A DNA stretch of 25,248 bases from a virus (lineage: Duplodnaviria; Heunggongvirae; Uroviricota; Caudoviricetes), in IMG/VR virus record IMGVR_UViG_2700989400_000006, positions 1 to 25,248 of that record. One strand, written 5' to 3'. The position numbers and the translations under genes were made by a program. The notes beneath the pieces were generated by a model. The model saw only the letters and a list, made by a program, of their open reading frames with translations. It searched no databases and was not told the origin of the DNA. This document shows positions 3,947 through 12,949 of the stretch, one piece after another. Every line of letters begins with the position of its first letter. The first letter of the stretch is position 1.

Positions 3947-3967
3947 AAAAAAGCCACCGAAGTGACC
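3947..3967 (-). terminator. Putative intrinsic terminator after the endolysin gene (minus strand)
   Basis: Minus-strand RNA would read GGUCAC-UUCG-GUGGCU (6-bp stem with two G.U pairs, UUCG tetraloop) followed by UUUUUUAUU. The same stem on the plus strand would carry A-C mismatches, so it is strand-specific. Confidence 0.45.
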
Positions 3968-3979
3968 TTTTCGATGAGT

Positions 3980-4534
3980 TTATAAACCAACGCGCTCTTT
4001 CATCCAGCCATAGACAAACGACTCGTTAGCCTCGCGTTTCTCGGCCAGCGCCAGATAACGCTCACCCTGCGTACAGTTCAGGGCTTTCACCAGTACCAGT
4101 TCGCCATCCCTGCCGCGATTTTTCAGATAAGAACGTAACGCATTAATGGTTCGCGGCCCGATCCCCCCGTCTGTAACTATGTCCGGATACAGCATTCCCT
4201 TCTGATTAAACACATTCAGCCAGCGCTGAAGCATTTTTGTGGCTACCGACGGCCCCATGTTTACCCCGGTATCACACAGTTCTGCAGCAATATCAGGAGA
4301 CAGGTTTGCCACCTGGTCAAAACGAGGTCCATACCAATAGTCTGCCTCAAGGATTTCCAGAGCCTGCCCGCGGCTCAAATCACGCATATCACCACGGTAA
4401 CCATGCGCGCGCGCCACTTTTTCAGTAATTCCCCACTTCGTCGCTCCGCCTGTATCGTCAGGATGACTGACATACCCCCCCTCTTTTCCGAGGATTTCAT
4501 CAAAAATTTCATCTCTCGATTTCATATCAGCCAC
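3980..4534 (-). CDS. Endolysin, glycoside hydrolase family 108-like with C-terminal peptidoglycan-binding domain
   Basis: 184-aa ORF; N-terminal motif EILGKEGGYVSHPDDTGGATKWGIT is the GH108 signature as I recall it; no N-terminal hydrophobic (SAR) segment; start overlaps the stop of the upstream membrane-protein gene. Confidence 0.8.
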   Translation of the reverse strand: MADMKSRDEIFDEILGKEGGYVSHPDDTGGATKWGITEKVARAHGYRGDMRDLSRGQALEILEADYWYGPRFDQVANLSPDIAAELCDTGVNMGPSVATKMLQRWLNVFNQKGMLYPDIVTDGGIGPRTINALRSYLKNRGRDGELVLVKALNCTQGERYLALAEKREANESFVYGWMKERVGL

Positions 4535-4805
4535 TCAGGAAAGCAAAAATTTTTGAAACATTACCGCGCGCACGCACTACCATGACACCAAACACCAGGT
4601 TCAGCATCACTACCAGCCAGTCTGCCGGCAACGGATGACCACAGAGATAACTTAACGGCGTTATCGCATACAACAGCATCAGACACCAGGCGCACCACGA
4701 TATCAGCGGTTTGTGTCGGGACTCTTTTCTGCGGTAGAAAAAAAGCGTCAGTACGATAACCGTACATAACGCCGCATTCAGTAATCCTGGAAGATTATTT
4801 GTCAT
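4527..4805 (-). CDS. Lysis-cassette membrane protein (holin/antiholin-like)
   Basis: Start chosen at ATG 4805 (MTNNLPGLLNAALCTVIVLTLFFYRRK...) preceded by GGAGGAGG; the track start 4823 is GTG. Two to three predicted hydrophobic helices; 8-nt overlap with the endolysin start. Confidence 0.5.
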   Translation of the reverse strand: MTNNLPGLLNAALCTVIVLTLFFYRRKESRHKPLISWCAWCLMLLYAITPLSYLCGHPLPADWLVVMLNLVFGVMVVRARGNVSKIFAFLSG

Positions 4806-5187
4806 TACCACCACCTCCTCCACGCTGACGGGAGAACAGACCGGATACCAGTGATGTAATCTCCTGCTGGTGGATGAATGACAGGACTTTTACTGAGAGC
4901 ACCGACACCAGGACCGCACACAACGCATCAACGGAAGCACTGTTAAACCCAATACGTTCCGCCATGTAACCGGCCACACCACGGGCCCCAAGCACACCAA
5001 CAATAAAGGACACCAGAAAATGTGCAGCCACACGCCAGGCTGAAAGTGTCTGCGGCATTGTTGCCACAAATAACGCACCAGCGAACGCACCAAATACAAT
5101 CCCGAAATCCGTCCCGGTAAACAGCCCGAATACCGTCGCCCCGCCGAGCGCCACAGCAGTGCCGGAACCGGATAAGGGTTCAGACAT
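4795..5187 (-). CDS. Holin-like membrane protein (Gly/Ala-rich, ~131 aa)
   Basis: Start chosen at ATG 5187 (MSEPLSGSG...) with AGGAGA 6 nt upstream rather than the track start 5217; several Gly/Ala-rich hydrophobic segments; sits at the head of the endolysin module. Confidence 0.55.
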   Translation of the reverse strand: MSEPLSGSGTAVALGGATVFGLFTGTDFGIVFGAFAGALFVATMPQTLSAWRVAAHFLVSFIVGVLGARGVAGYMAERIGFNSASVDALCAVLVSVLSVKVLSFIHQQEITSLVSGLFSRQRGGGGGNDK

Positions 5188-5272
5188 ATTTATTCTCCTG
5201 TAAATAAAAAGGACCATCAGCGGCCCTAAAAAACTTTATCAAAGGTACCCGCAGATACCTTTTGTAGGCTGT

Positions 5273-5425
5273 TTATTCAGATTTGCGAAGTAAAGGCCAG
5301 AGTAAGACCGTTACCATCGCCACCAGCACACCATCAGCCAGTACCGACATCAGCCATCCAGTGAAATCCACTGCCACTACCAGAAACAACAGGATGGCAG
5401 CCAGCACAAGGCCCGCACTTTTCAC
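5273..5425 (-). CDS. Small hydrophobic peptide (50 aa), possible membrane peptide of the lysis module
   Basis: GTG start overlapping the TGA stop of the TerB-like gene (GTGA); translation VKSAGLVLAAILLFLVVAVDFTGWLMSVLADGVLVAMVTVLLWPLLRKSE is almost entirely hydrophobic. Below the ORF-track size cut-off. Confidence 0.3.
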   Translation of the reverse strand: MKSAGLVLAAILLFLVVAVDFTGWLMSVLADGVLVAMVTVLLWPLLRKSE

Positions 5426-5847
5426 AGATACTGCTCCAGTGGTAACTGAAGCGCCTGTGCAATTTTCTTGAGCTGCGCTTCTTCATCCGGACCAATGCCA
5501 TCCTGATCAGCGATATCCAGACAGAGGCAAAGCACGTCAACCGCCTCAGTTGTCCCCGCCACATCAGCCAGCTCACGCAATGCATGCGCATTCGCACTAC
5601 GCGGTGACGCTTCATAACGGGCGCGGATATTGGCGCTCATCTGGGCAATCTCACCAGAGAACGGTGCAAAAGCAGGAAGCGCAGCAATAGTTTTCTCCAG
5701 TACTGCGATTTCTTTCGCATCGCAGGTGCCGTCGGCATATGCAATGGAATATGCGCCCCAGACGGTCGCCTCCACCGCATCACGGTTCTCCATCTTCTTC
5801 ACTTCTGTGATGGCCTTGCGGGTTTTCTTTTTGAAAATACCTAACAT
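5422..5847 (-). CDS. TerB-like (tellurite-resistance TerB fold) protein
   Basis: 141-aa ORF; C-terminal DIADQDGIGPDEEAQLKKIAQALQLP resembles the acidic helix motif of TerB-family proteins as I recall them. Confidence 0.55.
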   Translation of the reverse strand: MLGIFKKKTRKAITEVKKMENRDAVEATVWGAYSIAYADGTCDAKEIAVLEKTIAALPAFAPFSGEIAQMSANIRARYEASPRSANAHALRELADVAGTTEAVDVLCLCLDIADQDGIGPDEEAQLKKIAQALQLPLEQYL

Positions 5848-5981
5848 CGTGACTTTTCCTTTGCGTAGACGAGCCTGCGCCAGATGGTTACCAGTCCACA
5901 GTGAAAGTCACACTGACAATCCCGTAAGCACCTCCTGAAAGGCTCTGTGTTTTTGATGTGCGCCAGGTGTGGCTCAGATAC

Positions 5982-6005
5982 AAAAAAAGCTCGCCGTAGC
6001 GAGCT
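5982..6005 (-). terminator. Intrinsic terminator (minus strand) after the 92-aa gene
   Basis: Minus-strand RNA: AGCUCGC-UACG-GCGAGCU (perfect 7-bp stem) followed by UUUUUU; 24 nt downstream of the stop at 6029. Confidence 0.6.
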
Positions 6006-6028
6006 AACAGAAAATATGAAGCATGTTT

Positions 6029-6307
6029 TTATCCACGAAGTATGACGTTGAATTCATCCATACCGACACGGCTGGCTATCTCGTTGTATTCCTCAACAAG
6101 AGCCAGCAATTCTGAATTAGCAGCCATGAACTCTTCAAAAACCTTATGGATGGCATCACTGTTTAATAAAACAATGTTCTTTCCTGAAAGGCGATCAGGG
6201 GTAGAAAATATAACTGTCAAACGACTAAAGGCCCTGGCTCGTTCAGCATTAACATCCTCAATACGCTGCAACAAGCTGGAGCACCTGGAAATATCATCAA
6301 TATTCAC
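6029..6307 (-). CDS. Hypothetical protein (92 aa)
   Basis: ORF from the track, co-oriented with the late operon and followed by a strong intrinsic terminator; no recognisable motif. Confidence 0.5.
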   Translation of the reverse strand: MNIDDISRCSSLLQRIEDVNAERARAFSRLTVIFSTPDRLSGKNIVLLNSDAIHKVFEEFMAANSELLALVEEYNEIASRVGMDEFNVILRG

Positions 6308-6827
6308 TCTACTCCTGTCATCTGGATGATAATCATTTCACGGAGAGAAGCACTCAGAAGTACCACTGAAGTATAACTGGTGACCAGCTGCTTACACATC
6401 TGTTGCCATCCTGCTGATGATAAGTCGATATTAACCCTTCTGTCTATAAACGAAACAAAGGATAAGTTCAGGTTTTAAACACACTGCCAGGATAAAGTAT
6501 TGTATACAGTATAGAAGAGCGTTATTGAATGACATAAAAAACCAGACCTAATCCCTTATCCGGAAGATATATCAAATAAACGGGGAAAATGTATTAAGAT
6601 GGCGTTCCTATTCTCTCCATCCCTGATGTCCACGTAACTCGTTATAGAATCAGAACGCCATCTGAATACACAGAAAAAAAGCTGGCTTCACACCCTCCTG
6701 CATGTGTGAACGCAGTGCCCGACCACGTGCTTTCGCAACCAGCGAAAATCAGTTTTAAATACCGAAAAACGATAAGAATATATCAGAACTTCCAAGCATC
6801 CTGCTTGGCTTAGATATTAATCGAGGA

Positions 6828-7913
6828 TTAGCTCCTGTTCTTATCTAATTGTGCATTTCGCAATTTATCGTTCAGCACCAATATTTCACCAACTGTTTGT
6901 TCAAAACGCCCGGACTCAAGTTCAACCCCAATCGTGCGACGCCCCAATCCCATTGCTGCTTTTATTGTTGCCCCCGATCCCATAAAAAAATCCGCAACCA
7001 CATCCCCCGGACGACTGCTGGCAGAAATTATCTGACGCAACATATCCGCCGGTTTTTCGCAGGGATGCTTACCCGGATAATACTGTACGGGCTTATGCGT
7101 CCAGACATCCGTATAAGGAACGGCGGCCGATACAGAAAAATAACGCCGCAGAGATTTGTATTCCTCAAGCAGACTGGCATATTGCCGGTTCAGTTCACTG
7201 TATGTGCTGACCAGCAGTTGGTGTGGCGTTGCCAGCTCCCCACGCTGGTGTTTTTCTTCTGCAACACGCGCGAACAGCGCCTGCAGTTTTCTGTAATCAG
7301 CTTCGTTCGGTAACTGCCACTGACTGGTACCAAACCAGTGCGACACCATGTTTTTCTTTCCGGTGGCTTCCGCTATCTGTTTGGACGTTATTCCCAGTGA
7401 TTCACGCGCATCACGAAAGTAAAAAATCAGCGGGGCCATGACGTGTTGTTTAAGCTCGCGCTCCTTTGCCGCATAGCCGGCATTTTTTGGCTGATATGGC
7501 CACTGATAATGTTCGGCAAACAGAATGCGCTCTGTTGCCGGGAAATACGCCCGCAGGCTTTCTTTGTTGCACCCGTTCCAGCGTCCGGACGGCTTCGCCC
7601 AGATAATGTGGTTCAGCACATTAAAGCGCTCACGCATCATGATTTCGATATCAGATGCCAGGCGATGACCACAAAACAGGTAAAGACTTCCGGCAGGCTT
7701 CAGTACCCGCCAGAACTGAGCCAGACACTGGTCCAGCCATTTTAGGTAATCATCGTCGCCCTTCCACTGGTTATCCCAGCCCTCGGGCTTCACTTTAAAA
7801 TATGGCGGGTCTGTGACTATAAGATCGACAGAGTTTTCCGATAAGGTCTGGATAAATTCCAGGCAATCAGTGTTGATTAACTCACAACTGGATATTTTTA
7901 CAGTATTAGCCAT
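6828..7913 (-). CDS. DNA methyltransferase, N6-adenine/N4-cytosine class
   Basis: 361-aa ORF with the catalytic DPPY motif (LIVTDPPYF) near the N-terminus and a glycine-rich AdoMet-binding motif near the C-terminus (FFMGSGAT); this order is typical of the N6_N4 methyltransferase family. Confidence 0.9.
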   Translation of the reverse strand: MANTVKISSCELINTDCLEFIQTLSENSVDLIVTDPPYFKVKPEGWDNQWKGDDDYLKWLDQCLAQFWRVLKPAGSLYLFCGHRLASDIEIMMRERFNVLNHIIWAKPSGRWNGCNKESLRAYFPATERILFAEHYQWPYQPKNAGYAAKERELKQHVMAPLIFYFRDARESLGITSKQIAEATGKKNMVSHWFGTSQWQLPNEADYRKLQALFARVAEEKHQRGELATPHQLLVSTYSELNRQYASLLEEYKSLRRYFSVSAAVPYTDVWTHKPVQYYPGKHPCEKPADMLRQIISASSRPGDVVADFFMGSGATIKAAMGLGRRTIGVELESGRFEQTVGEILVLNDKLRNAQLDKNRS

Positions 7914-8063
7914 AGATCAATAAGCACTTCTCTGATAGGCTCATACCGCTTTTGCGCAAAGCAGATGGGCCTGAGGTTTGCTTGTGACCTCAACACATGA
8001 GCAGATGGCTGGCAGGTGCCGCTAACACCCACCAGCCGCCCATTACCACAAAGTAAAAAGCCT

Positions 8064-8261
8064 TCACTGCGGAAGGCGTCTGTAACAACCGAACTGATAA
8101 TCTGCCAGACCCGCCATCACAAGCTGGGTCAGTATTAACTGGCAGCGTTCGCGTGAAAGGTAAGTATTCTGCGCAATTTCCCCAACTGTTGCCGGTTCAG
8201 TGACGCTTAATTCATTAAACACCACTCTGGCTGTTTCGGTCATATCCTGCTGTTTTAGCAT
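8064..8261 (-). CDS. Hypothetical small protein (65 aa), possible winged-helix fold
   Basis: ORF from the track; the segment TVGEIAQNTYLSRERCQLILTQLVMAGL looks like a helix-turn-helix recognition unit. Weak evidence. Confidence 0.4.
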   Translation of the reverse strand: MLKQQDMTETARVVFNELSVTEPATVGEIAQNTYLSRERCQLILTQLVMAGLADYQFGCYRRLPQ

Positions 8262-8435
8262 GTCTTTTTCTCTTTATTGGTTAACGTGACATACCAATAA
8301 CTCTTGTCGAAAAAGCCAGCAAGCTGAAAGACCGGTATTAATAACCACCAGCACATTTTATGTACCACACCATTTTTCTGGCATAAAAAAACCGCTCAAT
8401 GCCGGGCAGTAAAAATCTTCATTACTCAAGAAATT

Positions 8436-9149
8436 TTAACGCACTCTGATAGTATTAATTTCAAAATCATTAATATTTCCGCTATTAAATATAACGAATT
8501 TCTTACCCCCACTCCTGTATGATTTCGATAACACCAGACGATCATCATAACGCGCAATAATGTAATACCATACATTCTCATAGTGGATCGCCTGATATTC
8601 CCTCTTAAACTGTGGTTTGTACCAACCGGCAATAAGAGAGAATGCCCAGAAATAAATCATAAACCCAGCCATCATGAACTCAATTCGGTGATGGCGAATA
8701 AAAGACATTTCCGAAAAACATTTGACTGAAACAAGTCTTCTTCCAGACCTGACAAAAAGCGTGATTGTAAAGGCAGCAAGAATGCAGAAAATCAGTACAT
8801 CTGGCTCAACATGCTGATGAATTACCGAAAACTCCAGAACAGGTGGAATAAAAAGCAGCAATATCGCGAGAAAAAGCCGGATAAAACTCAAATTTTGTAT
8901 ATTGCGCTTTTGTTTTATGCCCAAAAAGAAAACAATACCAACTCCCCATCCAATAAGGAATATAACGATAACTGTCACAGCATAAAACAAACTTCGTGCA
9001 ACATCATCGACACCAGCCCCGACAACCCACCATGGAAAGCCATAGTAAAATGAAGTACCCCATCCATAGAAATAAGCGCTTCCCCATCCTAGACAGCCCA
9101 TATAAGCAACAAAAAGTGAAGAGTTTCTGAGCAGAGCACTGTCATTCAT
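8436..9149 (-). CDS. Integral membrane protein (237 aa) encoded on an AT-rich moron
   Basis: Four to five hydrophobic, Trp/Tyr/Phe-rich segments in the first ~170 aa followed by a soluble C-terminal tail; first gene downstream of the tR'-like terminator; hand counts on sampled 60-nt lines give ~27% G+C. Confidence 0.6.
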   Translation of the reverse strand: MNDSALLRNSSLFVAYMGCLGWGSAYFYGWGTSFYYGFPWWVVGAGVDDVARSLFYAVTVIVIFLIGWGVGIVFFLGIKQKRNIQNLSFIRLFLAILLLFIPPVLEFSVIHQHVEPDVLIFCILAAFTITLFVRSGRRLVSVKCFSEMSFIRHHRIEFMMAGFMIYFWAFSLIAGWYKPQFKREYQAIHYENVWYYIIARYDDRLVLSKSYRSGGKKFVIFNSGNINDFEINTIRVR

Positions 9150-9291
9150 AGTAACACCATTAACAACTCAAAAATATCAACACATATTACATAACAAATT
9201 GGATTCCATGCAGTCAAGGGGCGTCATTGATGGAGAAAGTATTGGCACAATCGTCATCACGTTTAATGTCTATGCCATTTTTTGGGGGGAT

Positions 9292-9313
9292 AAAAAACCC
9301 ACTCGGTCGCGGG
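9292..9313 (-). terminator. tR'-like intrinsic terminator downstream of the Q-like gene
   Basis: Minus-strand RNA: AAAA-CCCGC-GACCGA-GUGGG-UUUUUUAU (5-bp stem with one G.U pair, then U6), about 70 nt downstream of the pR'-like promoter. Confidence 0.55.
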
Positions 9314-9367
9314 TTTTACTAGCTTTGCCATCACGTATAAAAACGGCAAAATATCAGATTTACACGA

Positions 9368-9396
9368 AATATATGCGTTTTAATCTACTTTTGCAA
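9368..9396 (-). promoter_or_regulatory. pR'-like late promoter (sigma70 -35 TTGCAA, 17-bp spacer, -10 TATATT)
   Basis: Read on the minus strand 8 nt after the TAG stop of the Q-like gene: TTGCAA-aagtagattaaaacgca-TATATT. Position and the downstream terminator mirror the lambda Q-pR'-tR' arrangement. Confidence 0.5.
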
Positions 9397-9403
9397 TACT
9401 TTG

Positions 9404-10075
9404 CTATGAAAATGCCGCCTTTTGTTTTGAACGTGTTCTCTCCACTAACAATAAAGCTTCACTATCCAGCCGATGAAAAATGTGTTTCATTGCAACCCAG
9501 TGACCAGTAAATGTCTTGGACCAGTTTTTGGTTGTTACTCCCACCAGTAACGCCAGTTCCTGGTATTCGTAACCTTCCCCACCAAAAAGCTCAGCTTTTA
9601 CCGCCTGCGCCGCCAACCAGATCAACGTCTTCAGGCGCACCAGAGTTTTTCCTGCAATTTTTCTGGTACCGGATTGAGCATTAAATTCAGTCCACGCCCA
9701 CTGCGTTATCGCGATCTGATGCTCCCAGCAAATGCTACCGCTGTAACACCACAGCAGCCAGGCTTTATGATGTTCTTCAAGAGACAGAACGGCGCGTCGC
9801 CATGATGATGTCGAAAACTCAACCGGACTGACCAGGGCAATTGATGAACCTTTCGCCAGCGATTGCTTTCCCGGGATCGGTGGATTATCCAGCGTTACTA
9901 TTTTTCCAGTGACCTTATCGCGGTACCGGATTTTTTTACGTCTGTAACGCCCTGTATTGAACATGGCATTCTCCTGCCAGGCTTCAAGCTGACCTTTTGT
10001 TGCTCCACTCAAATCAGCGGTGGCGATCGTGAGCTGCTCACGCACAAACTGTAAATACTGGTTATTCATGCGCAC
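9404..10075 (-). CDS. Putative late-gene antiterminator (Q-like, non-lambda family)
   Basis: 223-aa ORF directly downstream of rusA and directly upstream of the pR'/tR'-like elements. No lambda-type zinc finger; the assignment rests mainly on position. Confidence 0.5.
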   Translation of the reverse strand: MRMNNQYLQFVREQLTIATADLSGATKGQLEAWQENAMFNTGRYRRKKIRYRDKVTGKIVTLDNPPIPGKQSLAKGSSIALVSPVEFSTSSWRRAVLSLEEHHKAWLLWCYSGSICWEHQIAITQWAWTEFNAQSGTRKIAGKTLVRLKTLIWLAAQAVKAELFGGEGYEYQELALLVGVTTKNWSKTFTGHWVAMKHIFHRLDSEALLLVERTRSKQKAAFS

Positions 10076-12226: not shown

Positions 12227-12382
12227 TTACTCCTCAGGTTCGTAAGCTGTGAAGACAGCGACCTCCGTCTGGCCGGTTCGGATTCGTACCTCGCAGAGGT
12301 CTTTCCTCGTTACCAGTGCCGTCACTATGACGGTTAAACAGATGACGATCAGGGCGATTAACATCGCCTTTTGCTGCTTCAT
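12227..12382 (-). CDS. hokD: Hok/Gef-family type I toxin (51 aa)
   Basis: MKQQKAMLIALIVICLTVIVTALVTRKDLCEVRIRTGQTEVAVFTAYEPEE matches my recollection of E. coli HokD (RelF). A perfect 9-bp hairpin (12198-12219) follows the stop, consistent with the folded 3' end of hok-type mRNAs. Confidence 0.9.
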   Translation of the reverse strand: MKQQKAMLIALIVICLTVIVTALVTRKDLCEVRIRTGQTEVAVFTAYEPEE

Positions 12383-12439
12383 AGCCTGCTTCTCCTTGCC
12401 TTTCGGCACGTAAGAGGCTAACCTAGATTTGCCGTTCAT
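12227..12439 (-). CDS. Mok-like upstream reading frame containing hok (70 aa, same frame)
   Basis: In-frame N-terminal extension MNGKSRLASYVPKGKEKQA preceding the Hok methionine, as in chromosomal mokC/hokC pairs (from memory). Confidence 0.5.
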   Translation of the reverse strand: MNGKSRLASYVPKGKEKQAMKQQKAMLIALIVICLTVIVTALVTRKDLCEVRIRTGQTEVAVFTAYEPEE

Positions 12440-12949
12440 AGATTGAGCCTCAGATTAATGTTAAACGTCTTGCAGGACGCGTAATGTTAACTGGGGCTTT
12501 TCTCTATCTGCCTTTGGTGTTCATGCCTGAGGCAGATAGCCTCAAGCACCCGCAGCAATTCTACTTAACTCCCGTCACCTCGCCAATATAAAATCAATCA
12601 GAAAGGCGATCCGTAAGAACAACAGCAAGACAATAAATTGCCATTACAGCCGCAATAGCTAGCGCACATTTGAGAACCAGCACGACAACCTCCTGTATTG
12701 GACGTACACCAATTCTGATAAATATGAGGCTGTCTCATCATTGATTCAATATAACTATTGGGTATAGTTTCTGTGATTTTGTTCTGTAGAAATGGAACAC
12801 AACAACCAGTCACCACCAGCACTTCTTTAAATACGCCAAGTCCGACGCAAGCTAACCTTCTAGTCCGCTTTGAGCGAAGAGCGGACATTGCTAACAGCAT
12901 CCTGTGTGAATCATTACGATCAAATCGATGACTAGATAAGTACAAACCG

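Follow-up and report, generated by a model that had tools for sequence, protein, structure and literature searches.

A probable phage 82-type late-gene control region downstream of the Q gene in a lambdoid Escherichia coli prophage

The segment running from 9396 to 9292 on the minus strand of the window (the whole 25,248-nucleotide stretch of DNA analyzed here) is very probably the late-gene control region of a lambdoid Escherichia coli prophage of the phage 82 type. [quoted passage not shown] The system is of a classical, already known and well-studied kind, and the value of the example lies in an intact late switch of the phage 82 type, carried by a common E. coli prophage, in which promoter, pause, and terminator can be annotated to the base. 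The original prediction had proposed a pR'-like promoter and a tR'-like terminator working on the logic of phage lambda. The present analysis supports that proposal and identifies the cis-acting region as a homologue of the phage 82-type pR'.

The antiterminator gene lies at 9404 to 10069 on the minus strand and encodes 221 amino acids when read from its ATG, ending at a TAG stop codon at 9406-9404; a program-made ORF listing starts the same gene at an upstream GTG, giving 223 amino acids. The product matches Pfam family PF06323 (Phage_antiter_Q) with an E value of 3.6e-90 and 301.9 bits, against a cutoff of 25, and the alignment is full-length, with residues 6 to 221 covering positions 1 to 216 of the 220-position profile. 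It also matches phrog_304 (anti-termination protein Q-like) with an E value of 9e-106 and shares 77.5% amino acid identity with the Q protein of phage 82 (X92588), and RefSeq lists the identical 221-amino-acid ORF under the name antitermination protein Q. PF06323 corresponds to the Q82 family; Q proteins fall into three families unrelated to one another (PMC9388147), and lambda Q belongs to a different one, PF03589. The ORF contains no conserved cysteines; the Q82 family lacks them, and a member without a lambda-type zinc finger is therefore nothing unusual. The earlier assignment of this protein as a Q in spite of the missing zinc finger was thus borne out: both profile collections place the 223-amino-acid protein among antiterminators and not in a family of another kind, and the comparison with Q82-family sequences that had been suggested as a check found both the protein and the adjoining cis-acting region to be homologous to the phage 82 type. 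A PDB sequence search returned no solved structure for a relative of this Q, and no NCBIfam model matched it. The gene order, all on the minus strand, is DUF968, RusA, Q, promoter and terminator, cargo genes, holins, endolysin, and terminase. Q therefore closes the early-right (nin/rusA) region and immediately precedes the late promoter, and the control site is located, as in phage 82, between rusA and other nin-type genes on one side and the lysis genes on the other.

The predicted late promoter, of the sigma-70 type, follows directly on the 3' end of Q, at 9396-9368 on the minus strand. Its -35 element, TTGCAA (9391-9396), and its -10 element, TATATT (9368-9373), were both found by promoter scan and are separated by a 17-bp spacer, AAGTAGATTAAAACGCA (9374-9390). 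The -35 element is nearly invariant in relatives from many genera, where it is TTGCAA and only rarely TTGAAA, TTGTAA, or TTGCRG; the -10 element of relatives is TATATT, CATATT, or TACATT. A promoter of this composition right after Q was part of the original prediction and is indeed present, although the gap between the Q stop codon and the -35 element is 7 nt and not the 8 nt given at the time. Taken by themselves, the hexamers are no better than chance, with a consensus match of 9 out of 12 and six such sites detected in 2.5 kb compared with 5.1 expected. Since the hexamers prove nothing alone, the case for a late promoter is carried by context and conservation. The composite of the -35 element, the -10 element, and the downstream motif TGATAT, searched with up to three mismatches, occurs once in 25 kb, compared with 0.02 occurrences expected. 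Transcription is predicted to start at 9361, at the A that opens AAATCTG, give or take about 3 nt. This start reproduces the published numbering of the phage 82 promoter (PMC5001585), and the Rfam isrJ model, to which we return below, begins 3 nt upstream of it.

The Q-binding element (QBE) lies between the -35 and -10 elements (PMC4914094), and the spacer of the window promoter is the presumed QBE. The window shares with phage 82 not only the Q family but also TTGCAA at -35, the sequence AAA-(C/G)T(G/A)GATTAA in the spacer, and an AAA start; only a few bases differ between the window spacer and AACTGGATTAAAAATCA, the spacer of the 82-like phage PhiR47_2. In relatives, the spacer also encodes the final residues of Q and the Q stop codon. 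It is nevertheless kept in the Salmonella prophage Gifsy-1, in which the promoter does not overlap Q.

The most diagnostic part of the region is the pause element TG-n-TATTTT-GCC at +6 to +17, which was absent from the original prediction. At the phage 82 pR', transcription starts at AAA, a -10-like pause element with an extended -10 motif begins at +9, GCC occupies +15 to +17, an AT-rich stretch covers +18 to +25, and the polymerase pauses at +25/+26 (PMC5001585). With the start at 9361, the window transcript begins AAATCTGATATTTTGCCGTTTTTAT, and the initial transcribed region reads AAATCTGATATTTTGCC-GTTTTTAT. Every published positional feature of the 82 pR' is matched in it, including AAA at +1 to +3: an extended -10 TG at +6/+7 (9356-9355), a -10-like TATTTT at +9 to +14 (9353-9348), a GCC discriminator at +15 to +17 (9347-9345), and the AT-rich tract GTTTTTAT at +18 to +25 (9344-9337), all on the minus strand. 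On this position-by-position match to the 82 pR' (PMC5001585), 9337 to 9356 on the minus strand is predicted to be a sigma-70-dependent pause element, with the pause itself at +25/+26 (9337/9336), where the base at +25 is a U. The TG-extended TATTTT at +6 to +14, the GCC, and the AT-rich sequence as far as +25 are thus common to the window and phage 82, and by analogy Q loading in the window would depend on this element.

To place the window among its relatives, one genome per species was scanned, which gave 66 Q82-family loci from about 25 enterobacterial genera, including Escherichia, Citrobacter, Enterobacter, Klebsiella, Kluyvera, and the Cronobacter-group genera. In nearly all 66 loci the module is found at a constant offset after the Q match and has the same layout: TTGCAA or a close variant, 17 bp, a -10 element, and then (A/T)AAT(C/T)TGATAT. 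The promoter pattern was matched in 59 loci, and by eye most of the others have the same module with small variants. Most of the 66 also have TGATAT itself at an unchanging distance, and its variants, such as CAGATAT and TGATAC, are few. The layout is also kept in Q82-family phages of Enterobacter, Klebsiella, and Cronobacter, whose proteins have 52 to 67% identity. Sequence for phage 82 itself (X92588) reaches only to the Q stop codon, within the spacer at about -18, and PhiR47_2, whose Q is 97% identical to that of phage 82, stands in for it beyond this point; promoter, start site, and AAATCTGATATTTTGCC are identical between PhiR47_2 and the window. In all four of the sequences that span the region (the window, PhiR47_2, and two close E. 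coli relatives), AAATCTGATATTTTGCC is invariant, as are TTGCAA and TATATT, while the terminators differ. A module this stereotyped (TTGCAA, 17 bp, a -10 element, and TGATAT at +6) offers a means of annotating late promoters throughout the Enterobacteriaceae. In some E. coli and Shigella flexneri copies (loci L093, L094, L095, and L151, at about 1860-1990) the module has decayed, with TGATAC in place of TGATAT, one base lost near the -10 element, and an altered A-run close to the 3' end of Q, and these copies are probably remnants of cryptic prophages.

The intrinsic terminator, equivalent to tR' or t82, lies at 9292 to 9317 on the minus strand and reads AAAACCCGC-GACCGA-GUGGGUUUU, with a run of six T residues ending at 9292. 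RNA folding gives a hairpin at 9317-9294 with a 9-bp stem, a 6-nt loop, and an energy of -12.3 kcal/mol; a simple terminator scan had missed it because stem extension ran into the U-tract, and RNA folding was used instead. A terminator some 70 nt downstream had been predicted, and the hairpin and T6 at 9317-9292 do end about 70 nt after the predicted start, so that at the level of sequence the promoter is followed shortly downstream by an intrinsic terminator. Phage 82-type regions likewise have a terminator within about 70 to 80 nt, although its hairpin sequence differs from that of the window. All 59 loci with a matched promoter pattern, the window included, have a hairpin followed by a T-run, and the relatives use at least 10 different stem sequences. 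The presence of terminators everywhere, with many different stems, indicates selection on structure and not on sequence. At 9301, in the 3' arm of the stem, the window has GTGGG where its closest relatives have GCGGG (minus strand), a private change of a G-C to a G.U pair that is absent from all of the related loci compared that have the same terminator type. The terminator energy is -12.3 kcal/mol in the window, compared with -14.2 kcal/mol in the closest relatives, a loss of about 2 kcal/mol that still falls inside the spread of natural variants, one of which has -11.9.

The predicted terminated leader RNA is about 68 to 70 nt long (9292-9361, minus strand). Upstream of the terminator it contains a leader hairpin, hairpin 1, which RNA folding places at +11 to +39 (9323-9351, minus strand) with the arms UUUUGCCGUU and GAUGGCAAAG. 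The leader folds with -22.2 kcal/mol (z = -3.58); all 200 shuffled sequences were less stable. Counterparts of hairpin 1 with other sequences, such as GUCG-C/G-CGAC, UGCCA/UGGCA, and CUGCC/GGCGG, occur in the Rfam isrJ model and in the majority of long leaders; the shortest leaders have none. Across the family, leaders are 51 to 119 nt long with a median of 75 nt, and that of the window is 70 nt. The original prediction had described the region as a shorter format of the lambda logic; compact it is, but the compact format is the norm of the Q82 family and not a novelty of this prophage. A search of full-text literature with the leader sequence returned unrelated papers only.

For promoter activity, pausing, Q loading, and read-through we rely on the phage 82 literature, from which the following course of events would be expected. 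The sigma-70 promoter TTGCAA-17-TATATT would fire constitutively, starting at about 9361. Sigma-70 would be retained and would re-bind at TG-A-TATTTT (+6 to +14, followed by GCC and the AT-rich tract), causing the polymerase to stall at about +25. A Q82-family protein, if present, would bind to the site in the spacer and pass from there to the stalled polymerase, which would then no longer respond to terminators. If Q is lacking, transcription would terminate at the hairpin and U6 (+45 to +70) and release an RNA of about 70 nt, whereas with Q the polymerase would read through this terminator and later ones into the cargo, holin, endolysin, and packaging genes. The same logic governs Q, pR', qut, 6S RNA, and tR' in lambda, in which a constitutive late promoter, a sigma-70-dependent promoter-proximal pause, a Q site within the promoter, a terminator ignored by Q-modified polymerase, and a short by-product RNA are likewise combined. 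The details are different in lambda: the pause is at +16/17 and comes from an element at +1 to +6, and the leader is about 194 nt long compared with about 70 nt in the window.

IsrJ is a 74-nt RNA of Salmonella that has been experimentally mapped (PMC2330248) and is expressed in lysogens under all conditions tested (bioRxiv 10.1101/787010). In a permissive scan, the whole Rfam isrJ model (RF01393) aligned to 9364-9293 of the window with 18.8 bits (E value, 0.34), short of the gathering threshold of 37 bits. Above-threshold isrJ matches (57 to 73 bits) occur directly after the Q82-family genes of ENT1, CobraSix, and ST11-VIM1phi8.1. The IsrJ of Gifsy-1 itself, which scores 100 bits, is preceded by TTGCAAAACTGGATTAAAACGGCTATATT-TTATGT-AAATCTGATAT, a promoter of the 82 type. 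In genomic context and in promoter, the arrangement in the window is homologous to that of Gifsy-1, and the likeness extends to the promoter sequence TTGCAAAACTGGATTAAAACGGCTATATT, the first 14 nt of the RNA (AAAUCUGAUAU...), the similar length, the two hairpins of which the second is the terminator, and the association with a Q82-family gene. The two differ in the sequences of hairpin 1 and the terminator, and in Gifsy-1 the promoter is 0.85 kb from Q, behind an inserted module comprising isrK, a c4-like RNA, and an anti-repressor gene (in our Gifsy-1 locus, L086 at 1898-2821, matches to isrK, c4-a1b1, and C4 antisense RNA, together with anrP, lie between AntQ and the promoter). Directly downstream of Q, the Gifsy-1 sequence could not be aligned with the others; the inserted isrK/c4/anrP module explains this.

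Judged by sequence, then, the leader RNA appears to be a diverged relative of Salmonella IsrJ. Rfam IsrJ corresponds to the leader RNA of the Q82-type late module, which makes it the equivalent, in phages of the 82 type, of lambda 6S RNA, a connection not stated in the literature that we found mentioning IsrJ. An RNA described as a Salmonella "virulence sRNA" is thereby connected with the 6S-type by-product known classically from Q control, and because IsrJ has been mapped, there is experimental evidence from a homologue for both promoter activity and termination. A review-style passage assigns an antitermination-regulated promoter to IsrK (PMC7547250); our comparison suggests that in Gifsy-1 the late leader under Q control is IsrJ and not IsrK, whose locus would be a c4/ant immunity module resembling that of P1/P7.

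The IsrJ link also bears on whether the short RNA could have a function of its own. It might be a constitutive, Hfq-binding sRNA of the IsrJ family that acts in trans on host or prophage genes, which would add to the late-switch reading. A precedent is StxS of the Shiga-toxin phages, a pR'-tR' RNA with a trans-acting function (PMC7547250), which like the predicted window RNA is a short product of constitutive termination at tR' after a Q-controlled late promoter. StxS differs in Q family and in sequence and is processed from a longer leader, and Hfq binding and targets (rpoS and stx1B) have been demonstrated for it. The full-length alignment of isrJ at 9364-9293, the above-threshold isrJ matches at the same position after Q82-family genes, the StxS precedent (PMC7547250), the effect of IsrJ on Salmonella invasion and effector translocation (PMC2330248), and the retention of hairpin 1 with differing sequences in most long leaders would all suit such a role. 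The alignment score of the window RNA is nonetheless well below threshold, and the part that it has in common with IsrJ is mostly pause element and terminator, which the Q switch already explains. Moreover, the middle of the RNA varies by lineage and some leaders, of 51 to 53 nt, lack hairpin 1, which argues against a conserved seed. We therefore consider it rather unlikely that the RNA is a functional trans-acting regulator; the fuller form of the proposal, in which IsrJ-family RNAs are generally pR'-tR' leaders and the RNA of about 70 nt is a diverged member acting in trans in E. coli lysogens, as StxS and IsrJ reportedly do, is to our minds equally doubtful.

The end of Q in the window differs from that of phage 82. 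The Q proteins of phage 82 and of most relatives are 229 residues long, and their final codons (...AK(L/V)(D/N)-stop) cross the -35 element into the spacer. The window has TAG (9406-9404) where relatives have CAG or AAG, which removes eight codons, and it is because of this lineage-specific early amber codon that the promoter sits after the Q stop codon, with no overlap of the -35 element. The same TAG is found in 36 of 81 close loci, which comprise 23 distinct ORFs without internal stops and show a pN/pS of 0.16; in many members of this lineage the old downstream stop codon has already mutated. A RefSeq genome with 99.9% identity across the Q region has the TAG as well, and Q is annotated there as a normal 221-amino-acid gene. 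The amber codon is a lineage trait and not a private lesion, and the shortened Q is under purifying selection. In a second lineage, the Q stop codon comes one codon later than in the window, still before the -35 element, and the AntQ protein of Gifsy-1, which has a different C terminus, is active (PMC4825925). Together with selection in the TAG lineage, these two observations suggest that the last eight residues of Q82, encoded where the gene overlaps the -35 element, are dispensable, and from its sequence the shortened Q looks functional. The amber codon was considered as a Q-inactivating nonsense mutation and rejected as the main reading on this population evidence.

A broader form of that idea is that the whole region is a dead relic, in which a Q inactivated by the amber codon belongs to a defective prophage with a decaying promoter and terminator. 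Decay of the module, with TGATAC for TGATAT and a damaged Q A-run, does occur in some E. coli and Shigella relatives, and the window shows a Q eight codons short of phage 82 and a private weakening change in its terminator. However, the abundance of the amber lineage, its freedom from internal stops and its pN/pS speak for a gene that is maintained, and the lost tail looks dispensable by the criteria of the second early-stop lineage and the active Gifsy-1 AntQ (PMC4825925). In addition, the promoter and pause elements of the window are all intact, as are its holin, endolysin, and terminase ORFs. We regard a dead relic as improbable, and an intact phage 82-type switch as the reading to be preferred. 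That the hairpin merely terminates the early-right operon and that TTGCAA and TATATT are a chance resemblance, as the chance-level 9/12 hexamers and the position of the hairpin just after the last early gene would allow, is very improbable indeed, given that hexamers, spacing, and TGATAT are kept across genera while their flanks diverge and that the Gifsy-1 promoter, 0.85 kb from Q, still makes the mapped IsrJ.

Similarity of high identity to related phages ends exactly at 9292, which indicates a single mosaic unit made up of Q, promoter, and terminator that moves as a whole. The terminator is followed by tRNA genes or lysis genes in relatives and by a membrane-protein gene in the window, where the junction immediately after the terminator (9278-9289) is marked by CCCCCCAAAAAA. 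Every gene from 9149 to beyond 1337 is on the minus strand. The co-oriented genes that the promoter would serve, at 3980 to 9149 on that strand, were identified from Pfam, PHROGs, and the RefSeq annotation of a near-identical genome and encode, in order, a 237-amino-acid membrane protein, a 65-amino-acid ORF, a DNA methyltransferase, a 92-amino-acid ORF, a TerB-like protein, two holins, and a GH108 endolysin, after which comes the gene for terminase Nu1; the downstream holin, endolysin, and terminase ORFs are intact. In this the window differs from phage 82, since cargo (membrane protein, methyltransferase, and TerB-like genes) and not lysis genes comes after the terminator. A terminator scan found further terminator-like hairpins on the minus strand between the cargo cassettes and before the lysis genes, at 8077-8060, 6005-5988, and 5227-5210, and a fourth after the endolysin gene, at 3954-3977.

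With at least three further terminator-like hairpins before the lysis genes, transcription from the late promoter would need a processive antiterminator to reach them, and the extra hairpins are consistent with inserted cassettes that brought their own terminators and with processive antitermination. The original prediction held that every gene from the membrane-protein gene to the endolysin gene is Q-dependent. For the distal genes, the intervening terminator-like hairpins support Q dependence as a reasonable inference; the claim is less secure for the inserted cargo genes, which may be served by separate promoters.

The first gene after the terminator, at 8436-9149 on the minus strand, encodes the 237-amino-acid predicted membrane protein, which belongs to phrog_1521, a group of unknown function, and has no Pfam or NCBIfam match. 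In two Klebsiella phages, another small RNA gene occupies the cargo slot after tR': Rfam matches to STnc100 (80 to 85 bits) lie downstream of the late terminator, beside tRNA genes, at 2601-2762 in L089 and 2069-2261 in L090. Elsewhere in the window, a match to the Rfam sok antitoxin RNA (111.7 bits) at 12377-12551 on the minus strand, in the early region, indicates a hok/sok-type toxin-antitoxin locus, and a partial hokD is annotated at this site in the near-identical RefSeq genome. On the plus strand, 20429-20480 matches the Rfam DicF RNA with 76.7 bits, from which it follows that the prophage, like Qin, carries a cell-division inhibitor RNA of the dicB-operon type.
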